A stretch of 64,000 bases of DNA from Psammoneis japonica (GCA_008632985.1 QPGO01000014.1:634289-698288), one strand, 5' to 3'; shown: positions 4,261 through 34,387, counted from the stretch's first letter. A program made the numbers and translations. The notes: generated by a model from the letters alone, not told the origin.

Positions 4261-4302
4261 CACAATGGCTTTCCATTGGTCATCTTTCAACGCATGCTCA
4301 CA

Positions 4303-5140: not shown

Positions 5141-5149
5141 CGGGCATTG

Positions 5150-5413
5150 TGGGTGGGAAACAAAAAGAAGACACTTCTCCAAAGTGCATCATGCATGTGA
5201 TCTAGTTACAATGATCAGGATCCCTGTCTCAACAATGCTGCAAAAGTGAGAAGATGTAAAACCAAAAGTTTGTCAAGTCATGATCAGAAAAGACTGTGAC
5301 TGGACATCTTGGCCTGGAGGCACCCTCCTCCAGAAAGATCTGGTTCAATGCCCCAAGGGGCACTGGGCCCTTGGTGACACTTGGCATCTCCATCTCAACT
5401 TGGGCATGAAGAG
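5150..5413 (-). repeat. Split direct repeat A2
   Basis: aaaagtgagaagatgtaaaaccaaaagtttgtcaa...ccagaaagatctggttcaatgccccaaggggcactgggcccttgg...gaagag matches 13800-14063. Confidence 0.9.
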
Positions 5414-5935: not shown

Positions 5936-6020
5936 GGTGAGACTCCCAGGTGGTGGCCACCAAACATCAAACAGACGGGGCTGTCCTGCCAAGATTTAAC
6001 AAAACCATGAGCAACTGCCA

Positions 6021-7600: not shown

Positions 7601-7779
7601 AATGCCAATGAGAAGAGGCTCAAACATGTTGTCTGGCTAGAAGAGCCACCTTGTGCAGTTGTTTTTGAGAACCCACCCAAAACTTGGGAGTTTCCACAGC
7701 TTCACAATCCAGGTGCTCCCATCCGGCAATGTCGTGACCTTTCTGGAACCAATCCATTGGGTGCAACAGTTCCAGGATG

Positions 7780-10700: not shown

Positions 10701-11270
10701 GTGGGGGTGAAGAAGGAGAGCACTCTCCTTGTGCACCGAAACATCCAAATCCGGACCCGCAGCTGATCTGTCCAACTTGCAATTGATGATGTGACCAATG
10801 GAGTGGCTGAGACCCATGGGAACCAGGATGTGGAGTTCCTTCATCCAAAACATTGCAGTCCATGACAAGGTTGCCCCTCCAACAGCAGTGTGGCAGACAG
10901 ATGCATGTGGGAGATGAGTCAGGCCCCGCAGGGCTCACCAGGTGATGCCGCCCACCGGGACCATGTGCATCTGGTGACCTTGGAGCAGGTTGGATGTTGC
11001 CTCCAGGAATCACAGCAGGCCTGAGGCCAGAATGAGGTCAACAGAACTCACCATGTGCTCTGCACCAGCCCATGGCATTTGCCAGATGGAGGACTCCATG
11101 TGCTGATCAACCAGTTCTGTGACTGGGTCACACCATGAAGGGAAGTCCCCCTTTTCAGCAAACATGAGTGCTCAAGGCCATTCAGTGAGCCGGAGAGAAC
11201 GCAGACAAACTGGGGGGCTGGAAGCAATGATTGAACACAAACCCTGAAAGGAAAACGGTTTTTGCCTGCA
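7780..11270 (-). pseudogene. Reverse transcriptase-RNase H (pol) of the Ngaro element, interrupted by a MITE
   Basis: MVYDGTLSGLNDALWAP, IDLDLADMFLNF, G.KPSP, FMDDLR (RT). FANASRKGLG, SSNWKEL, FTDNSVSE, HVSGCRMIAKGTDGGSR (RNase H). Multiple stops and frameshifts; 5' limit approximate. Confidence 0.85.
9721..10182. mobile_element. ~460 bp MITE-like insertion within pol
   Basis: Termini GGGGCACA...TGTGCCCC form an 8 bp inverted repeat. Flanks ttccctgt / ccccccgt may be a degenerate 8 bp TSD. The interior is non-coding and, unlike its surroundings, keeps TpA and CpG. Confidence 0.6.
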
Positions 11271-11289
11271 AATGACATGCCTCAGGTTG

Positions 11290-13480: not shown

Positions 13481-13799
13481 CCAAAGATCCACCAAAATCC
13501 GGGTCTCGAGAGTTGGAACCTCCTGACTGTGCTCTGACTTGAACCTGAGAGGAGATGGCTTCCCCAAGTTCTGCGCATTCAACAATGTCCAATCTGGGGT
13601 CAATGACTCCTTGGGGGAGATCATGACCACCCAAACCTGAGCCCTCTTGCCTGCTTGAGCCTCTGTGACCCCCCTGGTGTCCCAAGCCAGAGGGAGGGGT
13701 CCGAGATGGGGGTGACAAAGGACAAGCCAACAAGAAAGGCAAAACCACATCCGTCTCAAGTTGACGGGCAAGTTTGACAAACACATTGTTGTTGAGACC

Positions 13800-14063
13800 A
13801 TGGGAGCAACAGAGCAAAAAGAAGATTCTTCTCCAAAGCACGTGCATGATCCAATTAAGTTGATCAGGGTTCCTGTCTCTGCAACGCCCAAAAAGTGAGA
13901 AGATGCGAAACCAAAAGTTTGTCAAATCACAATCAGAAAAGACCGTGACTGGACATCTTGGCCTGGAGGCACCCTCCTCCAGAAAGATCTGGTTCAATGC
14001 CCCAAGGGGCACTGGGCCCTTGGCAATGCTTGACGTCTCCATCTAAACTTGGGTGCGAAGAGG
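13800..14063 (-). repeat. Split direct repeat A1 (5' end of the element)
   Basis: Matches 5150-5413; identity stops after ...gaagagg at 14063. Confidence 0.9.
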
Positions 14064-15269
14064 GCCGCACAAGAAAAGCAAGTCTCCAGAATGGATTTTT
14101 GTTTTTTTGCAATGATGTGTGAGCAGATGTTTGTTTTAGCACTCCCGTGTGTTCTTGTTCATGTTGTTAGAAAAGCATTCCTAAAATTTTCCTGTAAATC
14201 CAGGGAAAGTGCAGTTGGTCATGGCAAAAATGGGGAAAGTCATTTAGTGCCACAACTTGCAATTTTTCAATGGATCCTGCATCTGACAAGTGTGTCATTC
14301 TGTGTGTCAACCATTCTCAAACCAAACACAACAAGGATGCTGCACTGTCAAATGCTCTGTTGTGTCATGTGTTGAGTCCTGGACAGAGTGTTGCTGTCAT
14401 GTTGTCACTTTCCCCATGTTTGCGGCAACTTCCTGATCAAGCAACAATGCAATGGTGCTTTCAAACCCCTTTTACGATAATTTTTGTTGATCAAAATCAT
14501 CACAAAACTCAAAGCAGTTGATGAGATTGATTGAATGTGATGTGTTTCAAAAATCACAAGGTGAAACATGGTGGCTCATGCAAAGAATGCAATGGATTGT
14601 TTGTTGAACAAAAAAATGTTCTTGTGTTGTGTTGACACAAAAATTGAGCACAAAGCATCTAGAGCAAAGGCCAAGGCAAAATTAGAACCCCGCATGACTA
14701 AAATTAACATGGTGGATCTAATGGCATCACACATTTTTCCCTTTTTTGAACCTTGTGTGCAGAACACAACAGCTCGCTTGTGGCAGAAAAATTGTCATTG
14801 TGTCATGTGGCCACAAACACAAGCCATGAGGTGTCCAGAGTGATGTGTGCAGCAAGAACAGAACTGTGGAGTGGCAAAATTAACATGGCAGATTAATGGA
14901 AATGTTTGTTTTCTTCCCTTCTTTCTGCAACAAGGGATCCACCATCCACCATGGCTGATGTTGAGAAGAAAACAATGCACAGTTTTGCTTCATCTGAAAA
15001 CAGCACAAGTCAACCACAAGCACTTCATGCTGACACAAGACTAGCCCCATGCACAAATGAGTTGCTGCCATTCTAAAGAGGCAGCTTTTGTTGCCACAAG
15101 TTGACAATGATTGAGCCAGGAGTGATGCTGTTGTTGGTCGGTGCGGTTTGGACGTTGACGATTCCAGCACAACAAAGCTGGACACTGGACTGTGTTTTTT
15201 TTTTCCCAACCAGAGGGTCCATGGTGTTGGAAAGGGTTGATCTCACCCCTTCACAAGTGGTCCCATGGG

Positions 15270-18180
15270 ATGTGGTGTGGGCGATGTGCAATGACATCAT
15301 CACATGCATTGAGTCAGACATGTTCACATTCTTGCAAACATGTGCATGTTGTCAAGTAAAAACTCTCATCCCACAGTGCCCCTAAATCTCAAGTCACCTG
15401 GAACCAACTGTGGCTAAAGACACTTTTTCAGCCATTTCCACACCACAAAAAAAGCACGCTTCAACTCAACTCAACCATGATGATGTCTCGCAATTCTTCC
15501 CCAATGCCTTCACAGGATGCCATTCCTGCTGACACTGATGCAAATGACTCTGGCGCAACAGGTGATGTCATTGCTTCTGTTCTGAATGGCCTGATGGATG
15601 CAAAACAAGATGATGCCATCTCACACTGTTATTTCCTTGCCAAACCACCTCCCACAGACTCTGTCACAAATGCCAATGCCGTCCCTGCATCTCTTTCAAA
15701 TGACATGCCAGGCACTGTCACTCTCATGCCCTTGGCACAACAGGTGCTGTTGACGCTGTTGTTGACTTGTGCCAATGACATCTGCAATTAAATGGCACCA
15801 ACTCACACTGTCATTTCCTCACCAAACTGCCTGCCACAGATTCTGTCAATGCCAAACCTGCGCCGCTGGTCAACGCCATCCACAATCCCTTTGTCGGTGT
15901 CTCTGCTGATGTCTTTGGCAAGTGTCCTCATGCTTGGCAGAAAAACACAGGGCACAGCATCCTTGCTTCAACAATGAACCAAAACATCCATCCTTTTTTG
16001 CTTGTCTGACCCAGTGGTGGTGGCAAATCCCTTGTTTGCAATGTTGCAGGGGTTGGCAATGGAGCCAACATCAGAACCCACACCCCCAACAAATCAACGA
16101 TGGGGCCCACTGCAGAATCAACAATGACAGAGCAACCGACATCAGAACCCACACCAATCAATGCAACAATGGCACCCTCTGAAGAATCAACAGCACCACC
16201 AACTGTTGAGCCCTCAGCAAAACCACCCCCAGCAGAAAAGTTGCCAACCACAGATGAGCCGACAGTGGAGTCACCAACTGAAGAGCCGACACTAGAACCA
16301 TCATTTCCATCTTGGCTGCCAACAAGGAGACCAACTTCCTTTAGATGCACTTGCAAACCCATGCCAAAACCTGCCGGTCAACAAAAACGTGAGGGTTGTG
16401 GCCATCAACTGCAGCCTGTCCATTAGAGAAACAAAGCACATTGGCACAAATGGGTGCATTCTTGTCCCAAGTGTGGAAAAGGCCGCGGCAAAGGAAAGGG
16501 CAGAGGGAAGGGTTGGAATCACTGCAATTGGCACAAGGGGAAGCATGGCAGTTGGGGCAATTGTCACTGGAGCACTTGGTCAGGTCAGAAAATGAGCAAT
16601 GAAAAAGGAAGCAGCCACTGCAATGACCAAATGGAGCACTGGAGAAATGGCAAAAATCATGATCCAAGACAGCATCATTTGCGGCAAAGAAGAGCATCCA
16701 GCCAACATGACCCATCCACACCAGCCACGGGACCCCCTTTGGAGCCGCCCACAAAACCGGTGTTGGCAAAGGACAGAATCAACCCAAATTGGAGAGACCA
16801 ATGTTGAAAGACAACTGCAATCAGCACCAACCTTAGAGGGAGCAACACAAACTGGTGGGTGGAGGAGAGGCATCATCATTGTTTTTTTTTGGGCAATGAC
16901 AAATGATCCAGGATGTGTGGCCAAGAGAAAGAAAGAAAAACATGACATGTTTGTCACATGAGAAGGATTGTCTGTGCCTCCAGCAATTCAAGGGCTTGAG
17001 AGCATTGCTCAGCTCCTTCTGCACGGTTTTGACATGGACCTCAATTGCACGGAGAGCCATTCTCCAGGGAGATGAAACTCCGTTTGGCACAAAGAATGCA
17101 GTGACTTGCTCTTTAGAGTCAGCCAAGCATCATGGTCCAACGGGAGCTGGACAATGGGTTGGGACCATGACATGTGGCTCTGGTGCTCTGGTCTCCAATC
17201 AAAAGAATGGGATTTATGCCACATGTGAAGGAATTTTTGTGGCTTCTGTTCATTGTCTGTGCGTTGGGGTGGGATGAGCATGCACTTGCTTGTTGCACAT
17301 CAATTTCTGTCATTGTGAAGCACTGGGGCAAGAATGGGAAACAGTGTCAACAGTGCCTGTGGCAGCAAGGGCAGGAGTGACAGCATCGGGCATGCCAGTG
17401 GACCGAAACGCAGGCGCGGCGTTTGTGTTCAGGCATGGGATCAGGAGAAAAAAAGGTGATGTCTTCTAGATCACACGCCGGTTGTGTTTGGGTGACCACT
17501 GCTGGAGCAAGTGAGTTGTTGTCTGCACAGGGAGTGGCAACAACAGTGGGGGTTGGGGATGATGGGTGAGATGTTGGCATGGCGGTGTTCATGACAGTGT
17601 TGATGGGAGGTGCTTGGGCAAGAAAAAAAATGTGCAAGTTGTTGGCATTTAATTGCAGATGTCATTTGCACAAGACAATGACAGTGTCAACAGCACCTGT
17701 GGCGGCAAGGGCAGGAGCAACAGCATCCGGCATGCCAGTGGACCAAGACGCATCTGCAGTGTTGGCATTTGTGACAGCATCTGTGGGAGGCGTTGGAGCG
17801 TGCAAACAACAGTGTGAGTTTGCAGCATCTTTTTTGCATGTGTCACACCCACGAGAACTGGAATGTTGACATTGCCTGTTGCATCAGTGTCATCAGCAAC
17901 AGCATCAGTGGGGTTGGCGGCATCCTGGGAAGGCAATGGGGAAGAACCACGATGCATCATCATGGTCAAGTTGTCAAAATGCGTGCTTTTTTCATGGTTG
18001 CAAGAAAGGTCAAAAAGTGTCGTCACCTGTGGTCAGTTCCAGGTGACTCAAGATTTAGGGGAGAATGTGGTTCAGGATTTTTCCTGCTGACATTGGCACA
18101 TTTGTGTGCAAATGCAAAATTCAGTGATGCAACAACATGTGAAAATTTGATGACGTGAACATTGCATCACCATGACATCA
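15270..18180. mobile_element. Segment bounded by long diverged inverted repeats (~15270-15830 and ~17620-18180); foldback or Pack-MULE-like
   Basis: ccctaaatctcaagtcacctggaac (15380) is the near reverse complement of gttccaggtgactcaagatttaggg (18036-18060). Both arms translate to MMM.R.SSP.PSQDA...QVLLTL.L.CANDICN*. Confidence 0.65.
16000..16830 (+). pseudogene. Decayed Pro/Thr/Ser-rich, KG-repeat extracellular-type protein
   Basis: EQPTSEPTP...APPTVEPSAKP...SPTEEPTLEPS...PTRRPT, followed in a shifted frame by GKGRGKGKGRGKGW. Typical of diatom secreted or cell-wall proteins. TpA-depleted. Confidence 0.5.
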
Positions 18181-18199
18181 AAACCACATTCTCCACTTG

Positions 18200-19480
18200 C
18201 AAAGGGGTGTGTTGATGTGGAGAAACATGTGGTGGGAGGGTTGCATGGAGCATGCTTGGGGATGGAGAGAAAAAGGTTGAGCCCAAAGTGCAGACAGACA
18301 GTCAAGAGGAGGAGTCATTGCATTGGCAACAGTGGGGTGGTGAAGGAGAAGAGCTTGGCATGTGGAGAGATGGTTGGAAAGAGCAAAGCCAAAGTTGAGG
18401 CTGAGGATTTGAGAGCCCCAGAGTTGAGGTGTTACGGTGTGATGAGAGGAGCCAAAGCGGTCCGGTGAAAGTTGTTTCCAGGCCGCATTGGAGTGGGCAA
18501 GGAGGTTGGAAGGTGCAATCAGTGAGTCAGTGAAAGTGGAGAAGGATGCTTGAGAGTTGGAAAGGGAGGATGGGCTTGTCCAGGGTGGTTTGGGAGGAAG
18601 GGGGGGATGGAGGAGGATGTTGTGGCAGAGGTGCCAAAGAAGAAGACATGGAAATGACACCTGATTCCACCAAGTGCCAAGGTGGTCAAATGCGAAAGGG
18701 AGGAAGAAAAGTCCAGCTTGGTTGACAGTGTCAATGACATTGGAGCCATGGGCAGATGGTGCAGAACAACCAAGAAGCTTGTCCCACATGCTGCTGAGGT
18801 GAGCCTTGTCCAATGGGTCTTCAGGGACAGGCAAACCAGGTGCAGGAGGTGGGGTGGCTGGTGGCACAGTGACATCAATGGCCAAGAAGTTGGTGGTGCA
18901 GAACCAGGGGCAAGTTGAGCACCAATGCCGGCAGGGTGTTTGAGGGGGTGTGGTCAGCCAAGAGGCCAGCAGGGTCAAGGCAGACTTGTTGGCGGGAAAG
19001 GCACAGGCTGCAAAGGGGGGGTCAGTTTCGACAATGGCGCAAATGGTGTCGCGAATGTGATTTGACAGCAGGCCTTTGTGCATTTTGGAGCATGCAAAGG
19101 CATGGTTTCTGCAAGGGTCTGGGCAGGTGTGGCTGCATGGGCAACTGCGCTGGAGCAGATTGGAGGGAATCATTGAGAGGCTGTTGATGGGAGCCGGTTG
19201 GAGGAGGGAGCTCAGGGAAGGGAGTGAAGGCAGCCACAGGCTTGTCAGCAGAGACAGCAGGGATGGAAGGGCTGGTTACATGGAGGGTTGACGAGGATCT
19301 GAGGGAGAGTGTTGGTTTTGTGATGACACAGGTGAAGACTCTGTGCAAGACCACGCAGGTTGTGGTGTTTGACAGCGTGTGTCAATGAAGTGAAGGAAGA
19401 AGGAGAGTCAAGCCGAAGGAGGATGGGAGTGCAGTGGCAGAAAATATGTGACCGAGGGAAAGGGTGGAGCATGGGTTAGA
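18200..19480 (-). mobile_element. 3' fragment of an RLE-type (CRE-like) non-LTR retrotransposon
   Basis: CPCS...DPCRNHAFAC.K.HK...NHIRD (CCHC knuckle), then LAIDVTV and FLPFAFDHLG, as in restriction-like endonuclease domains. No RT seen. Confidence 0.6.
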
Positions 19481-20151
19481 TCATGAGCCAAGAGCAGTGG
19501 AGCGGCTCAAAGGGAGATGAAAGACATCGCCACCGGTGAGCAGGATGCCATGTTTGGTGCAACGTGTGGATCTTGTGAGAGAGGTGATGAGAGCTGGGAT
19601 GGTGACAGTGGAGACACGTCCGTTTTGATGGGTCACATGTTGCTTCGATTTTGCAACTTCGTTTTTCACGGTGGTTGTCAAGATCGATTTTCGATTTGAC
19701 AGCCGACGTGAAAAACCAAGTTGAAAAATCCAAAATCGAAGTTTTCCGTGTGCGTGCGCCCCGGCTCTTTCAGCTTTTGGTTGGGTGGGCGGATGGCTTG
19801 CTTCGGGCTCGCAGTTGTCAGGCCTGCGCACGGCATTGCCGTGCAGTTGCAGTAGAAGTGCTGCACATCACAAGGCCGGCTATCCAGCAGCTCCTCTCAG
19901 CCAGATAGAAGAAGAAGAGAAAAGGAAAAGGAAGGAAAAAATAAACATCAATGAAGGTTTGAAAGGGTGCGCTGCAGTGCCGTAGTGCGCACAGTAGTGA
20001 AGACGGACGTAGACAGGTGCAGACGCGCTGCGTGGAATTTGGTGCGAAGTGTCACACGTTTACGTGCGCAGAAGGATGTGGATCGCCAACGGCTGGAACA
20101 AAGCAACACACCACACAGCAGTGAGTGCAGCTCTGTCATCACGGCGCTAGA

Positions 20152-21612
20152 ATGGTGGAGGACAACATCGTTGCGTCTGGCAAAGCAGAGGATGTAGCAG
20201 CTCCGGAAGTCATGGCAGAACTCACGGGTGCCGAAGGCGCGGCGGCAGCTGCCATGACTGCACTTGGCGCCGAGGGAAGTGCCGAGGGTGTGTCCATCGA
20301 GTCCGAACGCGCAAGGATGTCGGAGAAGCCGGCGCAGTCCCAAACTGAAAAGAGGGAGAAAGCCGTGCCGCCGGAGCCAACCTTTCAAATTTGTGGTTGG
20401 AATGAAGCACAGCAGCTGGGTTGCACCGCCGAGCAGCTCCTCAAGGCCGGTTACAAGATCGAGTTGGTGGGTGAACAGGCCACCTTTGTGAAACCGGAGG
20501 TCCCACCTTTTTGCAGCGGCAAAAGCGAGGAGGCAGCCAAGCCCGCGGCCAAAGTGGTCGCGAAAGCAACGGCGGAAGAGGAAGAAGAAGGAAAGCAATT
20601 TCCGGACCCCAACGATCCGTCATTCGACTTGTGGGACTGGGTGTTGCGGCACGAAAAATCCGATAAATTCCAGGAGTCCATGTGCCTGATGAAGGATGTG
20701 CCAAACAATCCCGACCTCTGGTTCCCCATGCTGGGAGAACTGGGGTGCATCAGGAGCGACCCTGAAGCCATCGCGAATGCTCACGGCGAACACTGCAAGT
20801 GGGTGTGGAGGTGCCGCACGGAAGTCGGCGAGAGGGGCATCCCAGACTCGACGCCGAAGAGCAACAAAGTGTTCAAGACCACCGTCGAGGCTTTCGAAGC
20901 GGGGTGGTCGCTCGCACTGGTCTGTCTCGTGAAGAGAGTAAGTACAGAAGTGTGCACATTTGGATGAGGCGCCGTGTCACTTCAACCTGCGTTGTTTTGC
21001 CTCGAAAAGTCTGTTTGCTCCGCAGGCCCCAAGGAGGTGGAGGTGGGCGAGCTACGCGCATCGCAACGGAGGGGCGCAGGCATTGGTTTTTTTGCTTTGC
21101 GCCAGTTCCAGAAAGGCAGCACGGTTGGAATCTACGTGGGCCCCAGGGTGCCCGGTACGACGAGGAGCTGCTCGTGGTGTGACCACGACAGCAAGTTTGG
21201 AGAAGACCACAGCGTGTGCTGCTCCACCATCCGTGACAGCGAGGGCTGCCACGTCACAGTGGAGCCAAAACCGCTTGATTTTAGCGGTCCAGGGAACAAG
21301 AATTCCCATCCACTCTACCTCGGAATGCACTGTGTGAACGATGCCACCGAGTCATTCAAGGACAAGAAGAAGATCAAGGCAAGCCAACACGCGGACAACA
21401 ACTGCGAGTTCTACAACGACGGGTGCTTGGCAGTCACGAAGCGAATCATGCCCGGGGAGGAATTTCTCTGCAGATGCAACTTGGACGAATTGGAGAAGAA
21501 GAAGAAGAAGAGGAAGGCGACGTCGGGTGCCATGAATTGGAAGAAGAAATCGCGTCTACTCCCCAAGTCGGGGGGGAGAAGCTCCACGTCTGGCAAAACG
21601 TTTGCCGTGTAG
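20152..21612 (+). pseudogene. SET-domain lysine methyltransferase with one in-frame stop
   Basis: GIGFFALRQFQKGSTVGIYVG, LYLGMHCVND, NCEF, VTKRIMPGEEFLCRCN match SET motifs, with conserved Tyr positions read as Cys. ORFs 20125-20967 and 20974-21612 are in the same frame, separated by TGA at 20965 (likely from CGA). Basic NLS-like tail KKKKKRK. Confidence 0.8.
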
Positions 21613-21834
21613 TGTGCTCTGTAAATTAGTGGCACAGTGTGTTGGTGTTTTTCAGCGAAACTGCAGCATTAGTTGGAAAGGCGTAGCCCCAGTTGTGGTT
21701 CGAAAAATGGGAACGAGGAAGAACAGAAAGTCGGCAAATTTACGCAAATCTAGCAAATTAGCAGGTGCCTGCACAGTCGCCTGAGTACAGAAAGTCAGCA
21801 AATTTACGCAAATTTAGCAAGTTATTTTGCACTG

Positions 21835-23268
21835 TCACAGTCGCCTGAGAATGGTCTCTTCCTCTAGAGAAAGGGGGATTGAATTGTCACTCTTGCCCAC
21901 TGCAGCACTCTTCAGGTGGAGAGACACGCAGAAGAACTCGTCGTTTGAGTTTGTCCTGCTGGAGATGCAGTGGTGCTTGGTGGGGTTAAAAATGATGACA
22001 TCACCAAGCCGGAGTGCAACGGAGATGCCTTCGGTGGGGAAGCAGAAGTGCGCCACAATCCTGTCATTCATGGTGTAGCTGCCGGACGGAGGGACTCCCA
22101 CCACGGTGACTGCTGACAGGAAGAAGTCCTGGTCCCGATGGGCGTTGAGGAAGACATTGCACCCAGCCGCCAGAGAGGAGAAAATGCCATCTGACCGCAC
22201 CAGGGATTTCCAGTTGTGAAACTTTTTGACACGAGCGATGCCCTTGAGGATGGCACAGTCCATGCACTCATTGACAAGGTGCTCCATGCGTGAAAGAAGT
22301 CTGGTGAGGTGGTGAGTGTGTTGGTCGGCTGTGCCAGGCTGCTTGCAAGAAATTCGAGCGTCCCTCGTGGCAGCCAGGCCAATCGTGGAACACTTGCTCC
22401 TGTCCGTCTCCATGAAGGTAATGCATTGTTTGCCACGCACAGTGGACTGGGCGGTGCAGCATTCTAGTGCTTCGAGCGCTTGGCACTGAGCAACCAGTTC
22501 TGCTGGGTTGGGGGAGCTGAACACCACAGCAGAACGCGGCAGCAGGGTGCAGGTGTTGTCGCAGCGGCAACCGTCCAAGCCAAAGAAAGGCTTCAGATCG
22601 AGCACAGGGTCACAGACGACCAGAGGAGCCAATTCGGCAAAGTCAATGTCAGCAAGACAAGGTGGTGCAGGCTGAGTGTAGTCGCCATCATAAACTGGAG
22701 TGCGGTCAGCTACGCAGTGTACGGAGAGACTCTCAGTGGCGCACGGTGCGAGTGGAATGAGGCGAGCAATCTTGGATGTTTTCCTGCTGGCGTGGCTGCA
22801 GATTCGCCTGCGGCTGCGGTGGGCCTTACGAAGTGGCGGTTGAGCCCTCAACACGTTCTCGCATGTCCTGGCGCGCATTGATGATGCGGTGTTCGCAGAG
22901 AACGTGTGTGTGAACTTGCCGGCAAATGTTCTGCTGCTTGACAATGTCACTGTCGTCTCAACAGTGCCCAAAGCAGAGCTCTGTCGACAGGGACCGGCGG
23001 ACTCCAGGGGAGTGGGGTCAAAACCCAATCGAGAGATGTGTCTGCTTTCCGTTGCCTCAAGAGCACCCAAAGCAAAACTCTGTTGACAGGGACCGGCGGA
23101 CTCCAGGGGAGTGGGGTCGAAACCTAATTGCGAGAAGTGTTTGCTTGTTGTCGGGCTGCGAGCTGCACGTCCCAAACCCCCACACTGTCGAGACCGGCTG
23201 CAACTCGATCGCGACAAGTGCTTGTCGTTGGCAGGACGATGCAGCGAGGCACGAGGCAGTTGCGACAT
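21835..23268 (-). CDS. TET/JBP-like 2-oxoglutarate/Fe(II) dioxygenase (Tyr-eroded, probably inactive copy)
   Basis: IFSSLAAGCNVFLNAHRDQD (HxD), FCFPTEGISVALRLGDVIIFNPTKHHC (distal His), CVSLHLK. Spacing matches the TET/JBP double-stranded beta-helix. The low-complexity N-terminus has a 33 aa (99 bp) duplication. Confidence 0.75.
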   Translation of the reverse strand: MSQLPRASLHRPANDKHLSRSSCSRSRQCGGLGRAARSPTTSKHFSQLGFDPTPLESAGPCQQSFALGALEATESRHISRLGFDPTPLESAGPCRQSSALGTVETTVTLSSSRTFAGKFTHTFSANTASSMRARTCENVLRAQPPLRKAHRSRRRICSHASRKTSKIARLIPLAPCATESLSVHCVADRTPVYDGDYTQPAPPCLADIDFAELAPLVVCDPVLDLKPFFGLDGCRCDNTCTLLPRSAVVFSSPNPAELVAQCQALEALECCTAQSTVRGKQCITFMETDRSKCSTIGLAATRDARISCKQPGTADQHTHHLTRLLSRMEHLVNECMDCAILKGIARVKKFHNWKSLVRSDGIFSSLAAGCNVFLNAHRDQDFFLSAVTVVGVPPSGSYTMNDRIVAHFCFPTEGISVALRLGDVIIFNPTKHHCISSRTNSNDEFFCVSLHLKSAAVGKSDNSIPLSLEEETILRRL

Positions 23269-23841
23269 GGTGTGTCTCAATTTGAAATGTGTTTCAAAGT
23301 GTGATGACGGAAGTGTTGTCGCGTTGTTTTTGTCTCCGCGGAGGGAGTGTCATCCCACGGCAATCTCAGTGCGAGTTCTTGCGTAGAAGTGCGTTACGTG
23401 CCGTGCCAGCTCGTGCGTTTGAATTACACGGACACACAAGTGCGGCAACGATGAGAAGCAGGCCGAGATTCAAAACAAATTTTACCGCCTAAAGGCGTCT
23501 TATTATTTCAACGCGTCTGCATGTCTGTTTAAAATGACTTTGTACGTCGCTCCATGCACAGGTAGAGGCAGCACGCCGCGTTTGAAAATTTCGTGCGCGT
23601 AGAGGGCGCGACGGCAATTTTACGCATTCGGCGCATGTCACAGTTTGGTTTGGAAATGCGACGTCTGGTCAAACCCGCTGCAAGCAAGGTTGATGTTGCC
23701 ACAAGGTTAGATGCGATGAACCATCGTTGCAGAAGTGTGAGGGAGTTTTGTCTTCAAACAGCTCCGGACTCCGCGTTCCAGAGCAGGCGTGTCTCCGGAG
23801 ACGGAAGCAGATCTTCGCACTGAGGCGAAGTTGGCTTCGCT

Positions 23842-24585
23842 TTGAGCAGCGAAGTGTTTTTGAACGAACGCCTTCTTGGCGTGAATCACACCTGCGACAC
23901 ATCTGTCGACATGGGCGGGGGAGTTGCCGGACCCAGCATCGGGCTCAAGTTGCTTCGTCGCCGTTGCACCGTGGTGAGCATCGAGGCCGACCACAATTGT
24001 CACCAAGAGGCTGTACGTTGGGCTCATCGTGCTGGCCTTTGCTCGAACGTCGGGTTGGAGTTGATCAACAAGTCATTCTTGGATGAGAGGCTGGCTCCTT
24101 TGTGGAAAAAGAAAGGACTCAAGGTGTTCTTCAACAACTGCAACTCCCGGATGGTCGACGACAAGAACACACAGCAGAAGGCAGAGGCGATGCTTTCGAA
24201 GTTGTGTCGTGCTGGGACCGTGGTGGTGGCGCTAGATCCGCTGTTCGCGTCGCACGCGGGAGAGTGGATGTGCGAGTCCTTCACGGCGGATTGCCATGAT
24301 GGCGACTTTTTGTGGCACAGCGGAGACGTGAAACATCTCGTCTTCCACAAGTGCACCAAGAAAGAGGAGACTTCTCAGTCAACCAGCCAGCACATGCGAC
24401 GTCCCACTCCGACACACTTGGAACGGAAGTGTTCACCCGTCGCGAAATGGCCAATTTTACTTAAGAACTCGACTGAACTGTTTTTTTGCTGTCACTGTGC
24501 CAGACGTCACATGCTAGTTACTCTGCTCAATTCGCCATTGCTTCGCGGTAACGTAAAGTTATCGTCGGAGATGGTGCATGCTTGA
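23842..24585 (+). CDS. DOT1-like class I SAM-dependent methyltransferase; true start uncertain
   Basis: VDMGGGVAG (motif I), VVSIEAD, VFFNNCN, GTVVVALDPL parallel the DOT1 motifs DLGSGVG / GxE / FVNNF / GxxIVS. Confidence 0.6.
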   Translation: MSSEVFLNERLLGVNHTCDTSVDMGGGVAGPSIGLKLLRRRCTVVSIEADHNCHQEAVRWAHRAGLCSNVGLELINKSFLDERLAPLWKKKGLKVFFNNCNSRMVDDKNTQQKAEAMLSKLCRAGTVVVALDPLFASHAGEWMCESFTADCHDGDFLWHSGDVKHLVFHKCTKKEETSQSTSQHMRRPTPTHLERKCSPVAKWPILLKNSTELFFCCHCARRHMLVTLLNSPLLRGNVKLSSEMVHA

Positions 24586-24672
24586 AGAGACAGAGGAAAG
24601 CTGAGTTGTAATCGACACTCAGTTCACCAAACATTTACAAATTTACACTGCACCGGCAAAAAAAAAAACAAC

Positions 24673-25545
24673 TCAGTCTTCGTCGCTGTCCTGAAGCACC
24701 AAGTCGTCATCGACGTTCAGGTCAACTTCGCAGTTGAGCTCGACATCATCGTCGGCCTCTTCTCCAGCTTCTTCTGCCGGAGCTCCAATGAGACGACAGA
24801 GTTCCATGGGCAACGACCCCTCGTAGAAGCAACTGTGAAGTAAGTTCTTGTTTTGGGCGCACCAACCGATGTGAAACTGACCACCTTCCTTCTGAAGCTC
24901 GGCAAGCGCCGCCTCGTTGCCGATCACTTCGGACCAAACAGCATCCTTCATCCAGAAGAAGTTGTCTTCAACGAAGACCTCGGTGTTGTTCTCAGGGTCA
25001 TCGTTCAGCTGCTTCGCAATGTGCTTCCCGAGGCCGCGCACTTTAGCATCGGTTGGGACTTCTTCGAGGAAGATGAAGAAGAGACGCACGGCGCAGTTCT
25101 TGGCGTTCGTCTGCAACTCGCCCTCGTGAACCCACCTGCCAGCGCAAGGGTGGAATCCGACTTGAACCGCCCACGGAGTCCTGCTGCGAAGGTTGTCAAA
25201 CAGAACCTTCTCCGACCAAACATTGGTCAAAAGGGGATTCTTGGCTTGGAGACGAAAAACGACGCCTTTCTTGCGGCCGACAGTGACGGTGGCACAGCGC
25301 AGGAGGGCGTCCTTGTCGGAATGGCTGCCATCGTCAGAACCGGCGGATTTGGAAAGCTTGAACCCATGCTTGGCAAGGCAGTCTTCCGGTTTAAGGTCGT
25401 CATCGGTCAAGCCGTTGGTCTTGCGGGGCGGACTTAGTTTCTTCAACAGAGCATCAGAAAACTTCGTCTTTGCCTTCTTCTGTTTGGTTTCGGCGACTTT
25501 GGCTTTTGCAGCCGGGGAGGTCGTTGTGTTTCTTTTGCGTGCCAT
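24673..25545 (-). CDS. Hypothetical protein with basic N-terminus and acidic C-terminus (Helitron cargo)
   Basis: Open frame of 290 aa from MARKRNTTTSPAAKAK to ...DDDLVLQDSDED; A-rich tract after the stop. No family recognised. Confidence 0.6.
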   Translation of the reverse strand: MARKRNTTTSPAAKAKVAETKQKKAKTKFSDALLKKLSPPRKTNGLTDDDLKPEDCLAKHGFKLSKSAGSDDGSHSDKDALLRCATVTVGRKKGVVFRLQAKNPLLTNVWSEKVLFDNLRSRTPWAVQVGFHPCAGRWVHEGELQTNAKNCAVRLFFIFLEEVPTDAKVRGLGKHIAKQLNDDPENNTEVFVEDNFFWMKDAVWSEVIGNEAALAELQKEGGQFHIGWCAQNKNLLHSCFYEGSLPMELCRLIGAPAEEAGEEADDDVELNCEVDLNVDDDLVLQDSDED

Positions 25546-26409
25546 CGAATCAGTTGGAGAGAAATTGTGGGAACAAAAAGTGCGATCGTTCAGAAGTGCC
25601 AAGAAAGACCCAGCAGAGCTGCGCACATCACACCAAGGAGAACTGGCAACGTCAGCAACCAGATCCAAACACGTCGAACTGCAACAAGGCAACCTTCCAG
25701 GTGTCAGCACTTGCAAGTGGTGTGTGGATTCAATTTGAACAAAACAGACACAAGGATCGGAGCACGCAAAGTCGCACTGAGTTTGCTGAAAATGCGTAAA
25801 ATCACGTGCAATTCCGTCCGTGCTTCGTGTGCATTTCAGCCGTTGCTGCCGCGCCGCCATCGCGCACGAAATCTAGTCGCCAAACGGTCGACGCCATCGC
25901 TGTCACTGCGGCACATGCTGCACCGGCAGTTAGCTGAGGTGGGCCCATCACCCATTTGGAGGATTTGCGCGCACTTTGGAAACACGAATGACGTCAATCG
26001 CACTGCAATTGCCACACGACTAACTCAACTGCCCCGCCACTCGTCAAAGCGTGATTCTGCGGAATTCACGTGAAGCTGCGCCCACCACCAAGATTGCTGA
26101 AACAACTTGAACAAGATCCAAATCTCACCCCATGGAATGTTCAGAGCAGGTGGTCGAAACAACTTGAACAAGATCCAAATCTCATCCCATGGGATGTTCA
26201 ACGTCGACGAAACTAAGTGGGATGTCGCACGTCTGGTGCGAAGAAGGACGTGGGAGGAACGCACACATCACTCTTCCGTCGAGGTGAAAGAGGCACACTT
26301 TCGTCTCACTTTTTTGTGACAGAACCTTTGCGCAAAGGGAAACGAAAAGCATCCCAACTACGGTGATTGGGCCACACCGATCGCAGTTCTCAGTTCTCAC
26401 AGTGACCTG

Positions 26410-27295
26410 GTGACGCAGGTTGTGAGACAATGCACAAGCTCAGCTGCGGTGACTGGACAACACCAGTCGCAGCTCTCACAGAGACCTGATCGCACAGGTT
26501 GTGAGAACACGACACAACGCTGCGGTGATCGGATGGCACCGACGCAGTTCGTCAAGCAACCAATTCACTTGGCTGCGGTGACTGGACGACACCAGTCGCA
26601 GCTCTCACAGCAACCTGATTGCACAGGTTGTGAGCAAACAACACAGCGCTGCACCTCGTGACGTAGGTTGTGAGACAACGCACAAGCTCAGCTGCGGTGA
26701 CTGGACGACACCAGTCGCAGCTCTCACAGAGACCTGATCGCACAGGTTGTGAGAACACGACACAACGCTGCGGTGATCGGATGGCACCGACGCAGTTCGT
26801 CAAGCAACCAATTCACTTGGCTGCGGTGACTGGACGACACCAGTCGCAGCTCTCACAGCGACCTGATTGCACAGGTTGTGAGCAAACAACACAGCGCTGC
26901 ACCTCGTGACGCAGGTTGTGAGACAACGCACAAGCTCAGCTGCGGTGACTGGACGACACCAGTCGCAGCTCTCACAGAGACCTGATCGCACAGGTTGTGA
27001 GAACACGACACAACACTGCGGTGATCGGGTGGCACCGACGCAGTTTGTCAAGCAACCAATTGACTCGGCTGCGGTGACTGGACAGCACCAGTCGCAGTGC
27101 TCACAGCGACCTGATTGCACAGGTTGTGAGAAGACGACACAGCGCTGCGGTGAACGGGTGGCACCAACGCGGTTCGTTGATCAACTGGACAGAACCACTG
27201 CGGTGACTGGACGACACCAGTCGCAGTGCTGCAGGTGGCGAGAAAACACACATCGCTGTGGTGATTGGACAGCACCGATGGCAGCTTCACGGTGA
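26410..27295. repeat. Higher-order tandem array, 248 bp period (129+119 bp subunits), ~3.5 copies
   Basis: gtgacg(c/t)aggttgtgagac at 26410, 26658, 26906. Core ctgcggtgactggac.acaccagtcgcag recurs at ~26443, 26572, 26691, 26820, 26939, 27068, 27197. Confidence 0.95.
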
Positions 27296-27371
27296 TCGCA
27301 CTGAAAAAACAACTGTTTTTGCTGAGCAACTTCTTGAAATTTGTTGAGTTAAAGTGTCAGCTTAAATTAAA

Positions 27372-30300
27372 ATGGACGAGGCCAACTCCCGTGTTTGCAA
27401 CGCAATCAACAGAAAGTTTGAGATGCTCCATCTGCATGGAGACGGAGAATTTAGACCACACGCATGTTCAGTCTGTGACGTTCTGCTGAAACCTAGAGAA
27501 GTTTGCTGCTTGCCGCTCGAAACATTGGAATCAGCAAGAAACTTGCTCACCCCTTCAGACTGGAACAGCGCATCTGATCGTCTCAAGTCCTGCCACACTG
27601 CAGAGCATGAAGATGCTGATTGGATCAAAGACCTGCTGCTTTCTCCCCGCGCCCAATGCGCAGCACAGGAAGACAGACGACGCGTCGACGGATTCACTTG
27701 CTGCAGCGAATGCCGAAGAAGCCTGGGAAGAGCCGTTTTGCCAATGTACGCGACAGCGAACAACTGCTGTTTCGGCACCCCGCCGCACGAACTGTTGTCT
27801 CTAACCGAAGTAGAGTTGGCAATGCTCACACCAGTGAAAACATGCGGATGCTGCTTCAGCCACCTTGGCGGCAAACAGAAGAAGCTTCAGGGAAGTCTGA
27901 CGTGCTACAAAGTCAAGACACAAAGCATCGTAAGAACTGTTGTGCACTTCGACGCACTGAATTTACATCAGAATGTGATTGCACTGATGACTGGAAAGAT
28001 GACTCCGGAGCAAAGACAACTTGCGCGTTCAAAGAACAGAATTAGGACGCACCACATGCTGAGGGCGATGGAATGGCTGTTGCACCACAACCAAGAGTGG
28101 GTGTGCCAACAGACAAATCTAGACGAAGTTGGGCGTAATCTGCGGAATCCCGTGCTTGTCGATGGCACCGGTGAAGAAGAAGGAGAAAATGCAAATGTTG
28201 AGACCTCAGAGTCATTTCATGTTTGCTTTCCTGATGGAACCATGTCTCCTGCGACCGGTGGTCAGCGCAACCTGGGCTGCTTCAAAGATCTTGCACATGA
28301 AGCTGCTGCCAACGGATTTGATTTAGAGGTGCAAGCACAGTTGTCTAAAGAATCTGCGAGTGATTTCAAAGGCAACAACTTCATCAACGCGTGTCTGCTG
28401 CAGTTTCCTTTTGGCAGAGGAGGAATCAATGAGACGAGAATGAAGAAAGACGGAAGTCTTGCAGACAGCACCAACCTTGCACACCATGCCGACCACTTGG
28501 CACGGATTTCCCAGCCTCACTTCCACGAGCAGCTCTTCGTGTTAACATGCTGCAACTTGACAATGAAGCAAAGGATGCCACAGAGCGCAGGGTGGAAAGT
28601 CAGGGACAAGAATCAGGCTGCACAGTTTGCAAACGAACTGACAGTGGACGATGTGGATGGAGCTGTTTGTGATCGCAACTTGGGCGAGAGAAGAGATTGT
28701 GGACTCGGGCACCACTTTTTGCGCGCACTCGACGTTGCATCTGCGTCTCTGCCACACAGCAACGAAGCAGCAAAGAAAATGAGGAGAAACGCCGAAACTT
28801 GTCAGCATCATTTTGGCCAGGGTGGCATTTTCTTAACCGTCAGTCAGGACGATGCAAATTCGTTTCTTGTGCAACTGCACTCGGGTGTCATCCTGGACCC
28901 AAACGAAGACGTGACACAACTGACGGACGAAATTCTTGCCAGCAGGGCCAAGCAACGTAATGAACTGCGTCTAAAGTTTCCCGGTCTAACAGCCTTTGCA
29001 TTCGAGTGCTTGTTTGACATTGCAATGGAAGAGGCAGTGGGTTGGGATCTGAGTGCCAACCAACCAAGAGAAAACTTTAACTTCCACATTGGCAGGCCAG
29101 CCGCATTTTTAGCTGCAGTTGAGGAGCAGGGACGTCCAACAGCACATGGACACATGCAGATCTGGTTTGCATCGATCAACAATGCAAGAGAGAAACTGCA
29201 TTCGCCAATGAGACAGATCCGACGCGAAGGTGCTGAGCACCTCACCAACATGGTTCAGAAGATCTGCAGCATGGAATTAATCTGCAGCGAGGACTTCAGC
29301 ACTGAGCGCATTGCGTGAAGCATTCGATCATGACTGCACAGTGCCAAAAATGCATCGCACCTCTCCAAAAGTGGCAGACGACCAACAGCCAAGAAACCTG
29401 AGGCACAAAGACGGCCAGCAGTCGAAGAACGGAATGTTTGCTTGTTGTCGTCACTGCACCAAGTGCTGGACAAACGTCGAGTTTGTAGAAAGCTTTTTAC
29501 AGTCACGGCACCGTGCACCTGGCCTGACTCACTGTCCAGACAACCATGCAAAGCGACTAAAAGCAATGTGTGTACAATGCCAGCGAAGTGGTCCGCAAGG
29601 GACAACAGAGGCACACACACCGGACGCAGCTTACAACCATCACATGCATGTTACGAAGTCGTGTTTTCCCAAATGCGTGGAGTTACGTAAAATGCGTAAA
29701 AAAACCCCACACGAGGAACTGGACACGCAGTCAAGGAAAAGAAAACGAGAGGAGCTCAAACTGGGTGACTGCCGTCACAGGCAACCAGCTGCTTCATGTC
29801 CAAATGATTTGGCAAGGAATGCAGATGACACTCAGATAAAGTGGTTCAGCTGGGATGGAACTTTTGCGCATCGGTGCGTGAAGGAAGTTGTTCCGAAGAG
29901 GAGAAAGTGCGATGCTTTTCAAAACGTGTCATGCCCTGCAACAAGCAGATCAAAACTGACATGCAACACAAACATTGCTTTGTTGATGCCTGGACCGTCT
30001 GCTCAATGCACGATCAAGTGCATCCTAAAAGATGCCCAGAAAGATGACACTGCATTGTACGACGAAGTGCTTCGAACTACGAACAGGACAGCGACGGAAT
30101 TACGGAAACACGCATCTGATGCATCGGAAGCAATCAGACGTCTCACATGGGGTGCTTGCTCGCATGACAAGACGAACGTCATTGGACCACCACTTGCGTC
30201 TTACACAACAAGGAATGGAAGCCGTTTCATCGAATCTCATTTGACCGCATGGTGCCCCTTGAAAGACATTGTCAGCACACTAGAAAGAGACGAAATGTCT

Positions 30301-33023
30301 GTGACTGTAGCCCATTTTGGCGACACACCGTTCTTCCAATGCCAGGCCTTGCACTGCCCATGTCGTCCAACAGCACTGGAGAATCTCAGTCCGTTTGCGT
30401 TTTTTAGTGAGTGCGAAGTTCTTCGCAACACAAGGAAAAACGAACACGGCATGATGATGTTCGACAACAGAGCGCACAGGCACCCGTCTTGCAATTCAAT
30501 GAAGAATGAGTTTCTTCAAGGTGTCAGACAGCGACAGCAACCGCGATTGTTAAAAGCACTTCAGTGTGATTTTCCTGATGCAGCCAAGTTTGGCAGTTGC
30601 CTTGTAGATCCGCAGCAACCAACAACACTGGACAAAGAATTGCACTGCAAGTTGGCATTGGCCTTGTTTGCGCCTTGCAGAACAATGACGGAACTCAAAC
30701 CAATGACCCATGCATGCCTGCGTGAATTCCAACTCTCCGCAGCAGCCAGTGTCATTGCAGAGGAAAACTTGAACTTCTTGCAGAACCTGCAGGATGCTGA
30801 GTCCAACTGCCTTCGTCTCAAAAGCACATCTGACGATCTGCAAAGAAAGACGGAGCAATTTAGACCTGCTGATGTTGTGTTTGACTGTTGCGAAAGTGAC
30901 GAGGAAGAAGGTCTTTCAGGCGCCGTTCAGGGTCAACTGCTGGATGCACTCTTGGAAGAAATGGCAGAGCAGCCAGAAGACGATGACATTGGGTTGAGCG
31001 ACCAAGCAGTTGTTCCTGCGCATTTGAGCGGCAAACGTGCAAGACAGAAAGGTTCACACATGGGTGGCTGCAAATGCTTGGCAGACATGCACACTGACCC
31101 ACCAAACGAGGAAAGCAGGTCAATGAACGACAACTTTTTGAGAATCTAGAGGGCGGCGATGACACCGACGAGGAAGACCAGAATGAAGGAGTGCAACAAC
31201 ACATCCACAGCAGACCACTGTCAAGAGATGACATTGTTCGAGTGATGCTGACTAGAATGCAAAGAACAAGAAGGTCGTTTGAGGACATGACAGGTTTGGA
31301 AGAACACGTCGATGTACATCAAGCAAACGGATCTGCAGCAAGTGTCGTAGACTGGGCTGGGAAAGCAAGACTGGACAGGCAACAGCAGCGTGCCTTTGAA
31401 ATTCTAGCAGGAACCTTTGTGCTCACTTGCTGCCAAGACGCTCTTCAAGACAAGACGTCACGCAATGGACTCAACAGGAGAAACAGCAGACACGAATTCG
31501 CAACAAACCTTCACCGATTGAAGAAACTCGTGGAAGTGCAAAGACGCAGAACGTTGCAACTTGTGTGTTTTTTACATGGTGCAGGTGGAAGTGGCAAATC
31601 AACCACAATGGACCTCGTCATGGAATGCGGAAGAGAGCATTGCTCGCTTGTTGAGCAGCCGTTCACAACAAGCACAATCAGAGTGACTGCACTGACCGGA
31701 GTGGCTGCGACTGTTCTCAAAGGGGACACAATCCACCAAGTTGCATGCCTCATGAGAAGAAAGCAAACAACCGAAGAGCAAATTGAAGCATGGTCAGACA
31801 CGAGACTTTTGGTGGCAGACAAGATTTCTTTTGCAAGCAAGAGAGAACTAGAAAAACTCCATGAGAATTTAACAGCATTGAAGAGCGAACCAAGCAAGCC
31901 GCACGGTGGCATCAACATTGTTTTCGCAGGTGACCTCAGGCAACTAGAACCAGTCGGAAAAGGAGTGAAACCACTGCACAAAGATGCATGTCCCGAGTTT
32001 CACGAGTGGATCAACTGCCACACAGAACTTCATGGTGTGCACAGGTTTAAAGACGATCCATCATGGGGAAAACTGCTTGAGAGATTCCGCACTGGTGAGA
32101 TTACAGTTGACGATGTGGAGTGCATCAATGAACGAGCAGTTCAGAACAAAGATGATCTGCCCAGTGACCTCCGCCATGCCACGTACGCAAATAAGGACAG
32201 AGATGCAATTGACACTGGCCCATGCGAAAAAAGAGCAGAAACACTGCACAGAAGAGATGGAGACGTCCTTGACTCAATGTTGATTTTCAGTGACGACTTG
32301 CAGGCACAGAATGGCGCGAGACTCTGCCAACCATTTCCGGTTTGCAACAGCTTCTGGAACAACTGTGGTGAAGGAGACGTTGTCATGCAATCAGGAAGAA
32401 TGGATCCAGTCTTACGAATTTACAGAAGATGCAGAGTCATGACACCTTTCAACGAAAATGCAGCAAACGGTCAAGCAAATGGAACGCAAGCCACTGTTGA
32501 TGAGGTCGTTCTCAAACCAGGACAGGAACCAAGACTGGCAACTTTAGACAACAACATCAGCATTCCTGCTGCACTTGCCAGTCAGGTAGACCACGTTGCA
32601 TTGGAACACTGCAACAAAAGCATCGACCCCGCGAAGTTTTTAGTTGAGCCAAAAACAAATGCTTTCAGGGCTTGCATCGCCAAGCCCAGCCTAATTTTAG
32701 AAGAAGGCAACAAACAAAGGCACACTTTCCAACTGAAGGCAACCCAGCTGCCGTTTGTCATCAACAATGCCACCACAGGGCACAAACTGCAAGGGAGTGG
32801 AGTCCCGCAGTTGTTTGTACACTCTTGGAGCTGCACTCAGAATTGGGTGCATGTTGTGCTCTCCAGAGTAAAGACCAGAGAAGGGCTGTTCATGCGAAAG
32901 CCACCAAGCAAGGACCTGCAAAAACACAAGGTCCCAGAAGGCTACAAAGCCTTGACAAGACTCATGAAGGAGAGAAGCGCCACGCATTTTTCTCAGCAAC
33001 AGTGCGCAGAAATGTCAATGTAG
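27372..33023 (+). pseudogene. Helitron RepHel (HUH Y2 endonuclease plus PIF1 helicase), split by two frameshifts
   Basis: Rep: FLTVSQDD, AVEEQGRPTAHGHMQIW (HUH), QCTIKCILK (eroded YxxKYxxK). Helicase: HGAGGSGKST, TALTGVAA, GGINIVFAGDLRQLEPV, ATTGHKLQG, HVVLSRVKT. Frameshifts near 29315 and 31150-31190. Confidence 0.92.
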
Positions 33024-33169
33024 TGTGCAAACATCAGATTAGGATGCTCAACCACTGCACAACTGTTTGGCGACCCCAACCGTAAAAATGCGGAAATTTC
33101 GTAAAATAAAATGTTTTGATTAGATCAGCACATTGCGTGGAAATCTACACATGCGTCACACAACGTCGA

Positions 33170-33640
33170 ATGGATTTTAACCAACAAGCCAAGAAACGCG
33201 AACGCAACCGTCACAGAAAACGCAGCAATGGAGAAAACATGGATTTGCAACAACAAACAAAGAAGGCAGACGAGCCAAAGAAAACTGGTGAGGACAAGAA
33301 AAAGGTGCAGACACATGTGGAACTTCTCCAGTCATTGATGAACAAGGAAGACGAAGAGGAGATTACCTTGGAAGAAGCAAGAGCGGCGTTTGACCTTGCT
33401 TTGGGAAATTTTGATGTCACTTCTGCACTTGTGCAAGACAACACGACAGTGGACAGTCATCATGTGGAAACAACAGTCGCGCCCAAGGATGATTCAACCA
33501 TGGAGGAGCTAAAGGCAGCATGTGCAGCAGCGATTCCACAGCGGTCGGGGAGATTTTTCACCGAGGAGGAGATGGCTGAGCAGGAGAAGGAGCAAGCAAA
33601 GTCCCTTCAGAAGAAGCATGGCCAGAAAGAATGGAATTGA
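33170..33640 (+). CDS. Small charged protein with a possible UBA-like segment (Helitron cargo)
   Basis: 156 aa ORF right after the helicase. ITLEEARAAFDLALGNFDVTSALV resembles UBA helices 2-3. Confidence 0.4.
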   Translation: MDFNQQAKKRERNRHRKRSNGENMDLQQQTKKADEPKKTGEDKKKVQTHVELLQSLMNKEDEEEITLEEARAAFDLALGNFDVTSALVQDNTTVDSHHVETTVAPKDDSTMEELKAACAAAIPQRSGRFFTEEEMAEQEKEQAKSLQKKHGQKEWN

Positions 33641-34387
33641 GCAAATTGCAAATGACCATTCAGCAAAGACAACCGCATCAATGCGCAAAATACATGCACA
33701 TGGACTTTCACTTAAGCCGCCGCGGATTGAGCATGGCCACAAATGAGGACTGGCTGTTTGGCAAAGAAACTGCAACAATGCGCAAATTTCGCACATTTCC
33801 ACACTCACTTAATCCAACGCAGCTTGCCTCAGACAACATCAACATGCACAACTAGACAACATCAACATACACAGACAGCCTCATGAAACCTCACAGAAGA
33901 CAGAACGGTCAGAAGCAAAACAACCAGCACCACGCACTAACGCATGTTAGTCATGTCGCGTGGGTCGCGCAAAAGTGCGCACCGAAATAACCGTTATGTG
34001 TTATAATTAATTCGAACGCCCGGCGCAAAATGCAGCAAAATGATTGGTGCAGGCAATCGTCATGGCTCTATTTTCTGATAGTAGCGAGGGCGGCAATCCA
34101 AAATCTTTCGGTTTCAGACTTCGATCTAGAGAGTTCCACCTAGCTAAAGAGGAGGAACCAACTTTAGAAGTTCGGAACTTTCTACGTCACAGAGACGTCA
34201 TCGTGATTTATGCTTTTGAGCTCACGTCATCATCTCAATCTGCATTTCGCGGGGGCGGGAGGGGACAGTACCATGAAGAGCTTTCAGTTGCTCTGCTCCG
34301 GTTACTTGTTGCGACGCCGGTCTTCTTCTCATGGCGCTGAGCTGAAGCAGGTTGAGTTTTTGAGTGTTTCCGTTGAACCCAAGAGAC

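Follow-up and report, generated by a model that had tools for sequence, protein, structure and literature searches.

We analyzed a 64,000-nucleotide stretch of Psammoneis japonica DNA (GCA_008632985.1 QPGO01000014.1:634289-698288; hereafter the window), in which a minus-strand open reading frame (ORF) lies within a 14.5-kb block that also houses a SET-like gene and a Helitron Rep/helicase (Table 1). By its predicted structure, this ORF encodes an Fe(II)/2-oxoglutarate (2OG) dioxygenase of the TET/JBP fold. We consider it probable (roughly 0.6) that the ORF is a decayed accessory gene of a DNA transposon, intact members of whose family would, by analogy, oxidize a DNA base, likely 5-methylcytosine (5mC), and blunt silencing, and that the window copy is itself non-working. 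DNA transposons that carry a TET/JBP-like oxygenase are known, such dioxygenases having reportedly first been described in fungal transposons by Iyer et al. in 2014; what is new is the present family, which is distinct from the published fungal types.

Family, fold and active-site residues

On the minus strand no stop interrupts the frame between 23349 and the TGA at 21835-21837, and position 23268, which the original prediction had taken as the upper bound of the gene, corresponds to its first ATG (Met28). Judged from homology that lies far beyond chance, the gene is real. A word-seeded search with residues 200-504 revealed 10 homologs (E values of 2e-30 to 5e-17, 30-47% identity), none of which has a Pfam domain or an informative name. 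A profile built from these homologs (A1) and searched against 1.84 billion cluster representatives detected 1302 proteins at E ≤ 0.001, of which 989 reached E ≤ 1e-10 and 399 reached E ≤ 1e-30, each of the 1302 members being a cluster at 50% identity. The dioxygenase is part of a large family that lacks a Pfam model and is not named in any source. A Pfam scan of 65 relatives gave faint Cupin_2 matches in five, and a search of viral contigs for relatives found none. Homology to longer relatives reaches upstream to ~22914, and the N-terminal ~145 residues of the ORF have no homolog support.

The three motifs picked out in the original prediction were all recovered. The AHRD sequence is located at 22143-22132, with the His at 22138-22140 and the Asp at 22132-22134; the FP..G..V.L..GDV.IFNP..HHC motif, here FPTEGISVALRLGDVIIFNPTKHHC, terminates in the distal His; and CVSLHLK ends with the Lys of the last core strand. 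The accompanying remark that the usual Arg was not obvious was also correct, as the conserved basic residue on this strand is a Lys. Among 157 aligned relatives, the metal-binding residues are kept in 156/157 (His204), 151/157 (Asp206) and 155/156 (His260) sequences, and in the same alignment Asp208 is kept in 156/157 and Lys280 in 151/153. Arg72, Arg105, Gly124, Glu156 and Asn198 are likewise near-invariant across the query and the 157 relatives. On this conservation, His204, Asp206 and His260 are the 2-His-1-carboxylate triad of an Fe(II)/2OG oxygenase and Lys280 is the basic residue of the last strand. Lys280 occupies what we take to be the position of the 2OG-binding Arg of TET enzymes, and it may do the same job in binding 2OG.

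An AlphaFold2 model of the domain, calculated from a second alignment (A2), has a mean predicted local distance difference test (pLDDT) score of 91.7 and a predicted template modeling (pTM) score of 0.89. The model and the alignment reveal a double-stranded β-helix core that bears the H-x-D...H iron triad. In a Foldseek search of the PDB, all matches shown down to rank 21 were CMD1, TET2, CcTet or NgTET1 (E values of 6e-8 to 2e-6), while FTO first appeared at rank 23 and was followed by two more NgTET1 matches at ranks 24 and 25. When Foldseek's 1000 best chains were ranked, the top 16 entries were all TET-family, and a separate structural ranking of 48,161 representatives placed only TET2, CMD1, NgTET1 or CcTet in the top four positions. 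The TET-family structures lead every other structure by 1.4 to 5 Z units, and their alignments span 200-249 residues and take in the part that precedes the core barrel; sequence identity to the solved TET2, NgTET1, CcTet and CMD1 proteins is 10-13%. The language-model neighborhood is similar: 23 of 30 neighbors in the ESM Atlas belong to the set that carries PF12851 (Tet_JBP), and the three nearest clusters are unnamed, with diatoms named among the few recorded members of two of them. These data indicate that the modeled ORF product is an Fe(II)/2OG dioxygenase of the TET/JBP fold. Placement in a 2OG family that does not act on nucleic acids had been put forward as a possible refutation of this assignment; the outcome of the structure search instead favors the TET assignment.

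The resemblance is one of fold, and there are clear differences. Compared to TET2, NgTET1, CcTet and CMD1, the window protein has no PF12851 match, no Cys-rich or CXXC parts, and a Lys as the presumed 2OG-binding residue. JBP1 and JBP2, the kinetoplastid thymine hydroxylases, belong to the same superfamily and provide the precedent for thymine oxidation in DNA, as described in PMC12730594. No JBP1 or JBP2 catalytic-domain structure was present among the solved structures in our fold searches, and nothing here points to thymine rather than 5mC as the substrate.

Carriage on DNA transposons and the proposed role

Evidence for carriage by transposons comes from the relatives. A scan of metagenome contigs yielded 69 loci, many of them perhaps derived from a small number of element families; 20 of the 69 are at least 5 kb long. 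In 19 of the 20 longer loci an ORF of 251-1018 codons, represented in L002 by a 251-codon piece only, converges on the dioxygenase gene across a gap of ~10 to 330 nt. These convergent ORFs form one BLAST cluster, and PF18759, the Plavaka transposase, matches six of the nine that were scanned, four of them above the Pfam cut-off. A hidden Markov model (HMM) built from 13 convergent ORFs detected the transposase family, on the opposite strand, in 45 of the 49 loci whose downstream sequence extends for 600 nt or more, a count in which the 13 seed loci match by construction. Because of this convergent transposase and the PF18759 matches, we regard the family as one that is regularly carried by the Plavaka (CACTA/EnSpm) transposons of aquatic eukaryotes.

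Beyond the transposase lie two more conserved genes, both without a known domain and each present in 14 loci. The resulting four-gene unit, in which the dioxygenase, the convergent transposase and the two domainless genes are found together, is seen in L007, L010, L034, L039, L045 and nine more loci; the first of the two domainless genes shows weak coiled-coil or bZIP-like matches. HMMs of these two genes found no match in the window. In two loci (L010:1686-3764 and L056:547-2778) the dioxygenase ORF carries a fused Zn2Cys6 binuclear cluster domain at its N terminus (28 bits; cut-off 21), which suggests sequence-directed DNA binding. L048 contains, beside its Plavaka unit, a reverse-transcriptase ORF (7714-11853; RVT_1, E = 1.8e-5) that is probably a separate retroelement.

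Previous descriptions of TET/JBP genes on transposons come from fungi, where DNA transposons including Plavaka and Helitron carry AG, PU and PE types that are thought to counter methylation (Kojima 2025, PMC12730594). The present family is alike in being an accessory dioxygenase gene on DNA transposons of these kinds, with a proposed role in silencing escape. It is also like the PE type in that the latter is described there as invisible to ordinary profiles and recognized by structure against CMD1, NgTET and CcTET. However, the PE hallmark in that account is H-x-E, while the window family has H-x-D: the second position is Asp in 151/157 relatives and Glu is not among the four commonest residues. 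Other differences from the fungal types are the Lys in place of Arg, the lack of a Pfam model and the very large size of the family. Moreover, the hosts may not be fungi, the nearest Atlas clusters naming diatoms, and the window copy adjoins a SET-like gene and is decayed. A literature search found no report of TET/JBP in diatoms.

Accessory genes of red-algal Plavaka elements offer a second comparison. A preprint (10.1101/2025.02.11.637652) describes PAG2 as an N6-methylase with a SET domain and PAG3 as a ParB domain with a 2OG oxygenase. The likeness is the carriage of a 2OG oxygenase and a SET-domain gene, with PAG3 compared by its description only; by contrast, Pfam found the ParB and N6-methylase domains of that description neither in the 65 relatives nor in the window ORFs.

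In our proposed mechanism, an intact family member would bind DNA and flip the modified base into its active site, where the methyl group would be oxidized using Fe(II), 2OG and oxygen. This base oxidation would lift or blunt the host's methylation-based silencing of the carrier element, and the window copy would no longer be able to do so. The most likely substrate would be 5mC, because all four structural neighbors act on it, because CpG has been lost from the older repeats of the window, as methylation of the DNA would predict, and because the same role has been argued for the fungal transposon TET/JBP genes (PMC12730594). The original prediction had raised such an anti-silencing function as its first option. 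The option is plausible given the fungal analogy and the strict linkage of the relatives to Plavaka transposases. Should intact members oxidize 5mC, DNA transposons well beyond fungi would be making wide use of base oxidation against silencing, and the family would supply compact TET-like enzymes of ~280-300 residues. The TET-fold family that is now visible comprises 1302 clusters, has a Plavaka transposase as the adjacent gene in nearly all of the aquatic-metagenome loci (45/49), and includes diatom proteins among its language-model neighbors; one copy lies in a Helitron-type block.

Several results weigh against this proposal. Pfam assigned the window protein no family at E ≤ 1, with no PF12851 match, and among the 65 relatives only two had Tet_JBP matches, both sub-threshold (17.2 and 13.5 bits; cut-off 34.9). 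Searches of the PDB returned only chance matches (E > 1) with the single protein in phmmer and nothing at E ≤ 10 with the 78-sequence profile. The basic residue of the last strand is Lys and not the Arg that is presumably typical of TET enzymes. As to the carrier, what ties the gene to the Helitron is shared composition and proximity only, and no termini enclosing the two were found. A Plavaka transposase was absent from the window by tblastn with 53 locus ORFs and by the transposase HMM, and no Helitron, SET or other block ORF was found in the 69 relative loci. Finally, the CpG kept in the block (see below) fits a recent arrival as well as it fits protection from methylation. The original assignment as a TET/JBP-like dioxygenase is, hence, upheld by fold, the nearest folds all being TET-family, but not by sequence profile or by the residue at the Arg position.

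The Lys also bears on the question of substrate, as JmjC-type enzymes usually have Lys as their 2OG ligand. One might consider that the enzyme acts on N6-methyladenine (6mA) in DNA or RNA, as CcTet and AlkB/FTO can, or on a protein or histone residue, and forms a chromatin-modifying pair with the SET methyltransferase whose gene converges on it. That CcTet oxidizes 6mA (PMC12730594) and that red-algal Plavaka elements are described as carrying a SET plus N6-methylase gene along with a 2OG oxygenase gene (10.1101/2025.02.11.637652) would be in keeping with such a role. However, TET-family structures stand above all others in the fold comparisons by Z score, there is no JmjC or AlkB Pfam match among the 65 relatives, and the SET gene does not accompany the relatives in their 69 loci. 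We, thus, regard a substrate of this kind as unlikely and favor oxidation of 5mC by the intact members.

Decay of the window copy and the loss of TpA

The window copy bears a distinctive pattern of substitutions. Its domain has the lowest Tyr content of 78 aligned sequences (1.0%, compared to 3.5 ± 0.9% in the relatives) and the highest Cys content (6.2%). All three columns in which Tyr makes up 87-95% of the alignment read Cys or His in the window copy, each of these codons differing from a Tyr codon by a single TA>TG or TA>CA change. The column frequencies predict 10.2 Tyr residues and the domain has three, while the control residue, Phe, is expected 14.0 times and seen 14 times. The pattern extends to the entire block: Tyr accounts for 0-1.4% of residues in all nine block ORFs, versus 2.1-3.8% in nine host genes. 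In the Helitron Rep, the motif that we take to be the catalytic two-tyrosine motif reads CTIKCILK (~30007-30030, plus strand), with Cys (TGY) at both Tyr positions. Similarly, when the ORF at 23824-24585 is aligned with its homolog, which is 55% identical, four Tyr residues of the homolog are matched by Cys. Because Tyr has been lost across its ORFs and the Rep motif is damaged, the block is a mutated relic and the dioxygenase ORF a decayed copy of a DNA-transposon accessory gene.

It could be argued that the ORF is instead a working host or element gene, intact and expressed, in which the substitutions are tolerated. Across the entire domain the frame stays open, neither the metal triad nor Lys280 has been lost, and the window copy carries the family residue in 59 of 80 conserved columns. 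However, TAA and TAG have been nearly erased from the surrounding DNA, so that an open frame does little to indicate coding; both stops that bound the ORF are TGA, as is the stop inside the SET-like ORF. As all three conserved Tyr residues are replaced and the neighboring genes are broken, we find a working gene improbable, and decay of the copy remains our preferred reading. The region 18000-26000 yields 76 ORFs of 60 codons or more within 7 kb, counting all frames; with TAA and TAG so scarce, the length of an ORF in this DNA is no evidence of a gene.

The same substitutions fix the direction of a process that has also affected other parts of the window. In host genes, which lie to the right of the block, the observed/expected ratio (o/e) is 0.4-0.65 for TpA and ~1 for CpG. 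Repeats to the left of the block have lost both dinucleotides (TpA 0.0-0.12, CpG 0.1-0.4), and in the block TpA is depleted (0.05-0.45) and CpG mostly lies between 0.6 and 1.25. In 2-kb segments, all seven inside 20-34 kb have a TpA o/e of at most 0.29 (0.14-0.29) yet a CpG o/e of at least 0.65, while all 14 TpA-poor segments (TpA ≤ 0.33) outside this range have a CpG o/e of at most 0.53. Regions 1-19500, 46001-48000 and 56001-60000 show TpA at 0.02-0.18 and CpG at 0.10-0.44, with CpA and TpG over-represented (1.4-2.1). The uncoupling of TpA and CpG in the block means either that a young element was hit by a fast TpA process or that the element was shielded from CpG methylation.

The protein comparisons, in which conserved Tyr residues have become His or Cys, indicate that TpA is lost by TA>CA/TG change, and such comparisons should be useful for the study of this process. 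Repeat pairs in the window differ by 28 TG/CA double differences, 40 CpG<>TpG/CpA changes, five TpA<>CpA/TpG changes and 58 transversions, which on their own do not fix the direction. Because TpA is self-complementary, A>G change by an adenine deaminase fits the loss as well as thymine oxidation does. A literature search found no report of TpA-directed hypermutation in algae, and the TpA process is a stranger feature of the window than the dioxygenase gene.

The second option of the original prediction linked the two: a JBP-like thymine hydroxylase would convert T to 5-hydroxymethyluracil or 5-formyluracil, and mispairing with G would give T:A>C:G at TpA. The loss is indeed real and extreme, from 0.4-0.65 in host genes to 0.14-0.29 in the block and 0.02-0.17 at 1-20, 46-48 and 58-60 kb, and its direction, TA>CA/TG, matches. 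The fold family includes the JBP thymine hydroxylases, and in PMC12730594 a thymine substrate is not excluded for divergent transposon TETs. However, the loci of the relatives keep their TpA, with an o/e of 0.60-0.79 in all 20 that are 5 kb or longer, and the most TpA-depleted parts of the window lie outside the block that contains the gene. The gene, its neighbors and the Rep are, moreover, victims of the process, which fits a host defense better than the element's own enzyme, and adenine deamination explains the data equally well. The conserved Asp208, next to the H-x-D motif, also appears to resemble the Asn/Asp with which TET enzymes recognize the N4 amino group of cytosine. As no result links the dioxygenase family to TpA loss, we consider a thymine-oxidizing mutator very improbable. 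An equally improbable idea is that transposons write oxidized thymine or 5mC on their own DNA and that the TA>CA/TG scar on repeats is a by-product of this oxidation, not of deamination, akin to repeat-induced point mutation.

The block and its other features

The 19.5-34.0 kb block appears, from its composition and the adjacency of its genes, to be one Helitron-type element with an accessory cassette. Its Rep/helicase gene shows Pfam matches to DUF6570 (5.8e-13), Helitron_like_N (4.6e-8) and PIF1 (2e-14). Helitrons have captured 2OG oxygenases and SET proteins according to the red-algal preprint, in which tandem repeats are also described beside the accessory oxygenase gene of Plavaka (10.1101/2025.02.11.637652). 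Within the 64-kb window there are no other copies of the block, and Rfam and tRNA scans of the window found nothing.

Table 1 Positions of features in the window, counted from its first nucleotide
Feature	Position	Strand	Remarks
Block of uniform composition	19500..33990		TpA depleted, CpG kept; presumed single element; ends approximate
SET-like ORF	20125..21612	+	converges on dioxygenase; one frame broken by TGA at 20965-20967
TET/JBP-like ORF	21835..23349	-	stop to stop, 504 aa; first ATG 23268; homolog support ~22914 to 21838
Dioxygenase domain	21838..22749	-	304 aa, used for searches and model; pLDDT 91.7; nearest folds TET2, CMD1, NgTET1, CcTet
Lys280, last core strand	21910..21912	-	likely 2OG-binding residue (role presumed)
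Conserved Tyr column, now His (CAC)	21916..21918	-	Tyr in 148/154 relatives
Distal metal-binding His260	21970..21972	-	from alignment of relatives
Conserved Tyr column, now His (CAC)	22048..22050	-	Tyr in 139/157 relatives
H-x-D metal-binding motif (His204, Asp206)	22132..22140	-	conserved Asp208 next, 22126-22128
Conserved Tyr column, now Cys (TGT)	22390..22392	-	Tyr in 139/152 relatives
Two copies of a 96-nt unit	22952..23146		99-nt spacing, 85% alike; in unsupported N-terminal part of ORF
ORF of 253 aa	23824..24585	+	one homolog (P0188, 55% identity)
ORF of 399 aa	24673..25872	-	no homolog found
Tandem array	26405..27277		248-nt unit, ~3.5 copies, 66-98% identity; just upstream of Rep/helicase ORFs
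Helitron Rep/helicase	27366..33023	+	over three frames; DUF6570, Helitron_like_N, PIF1

The neighboring ORFs are less well defined. The SET-like ORF matches Pfam SET under the cut-off (E = 0.016), 20 of its 30 Atlas neighbors belong to the SET set, and its N-terminal 280 residues gave no family. The 253-residue ORF has no Pfam family and its structure model has a pLDDT of 35.8; its G-G-G-V-A-G / G-x-G-x-G and N-N-x-N pattern presumably recalls a Rossmann-type methyltransferase or DOT1, as a resemblance only. A direct repeat of ~64 nt (84% identity) at 21720-21849 spans the stop codon of the dioxygenase ORF.
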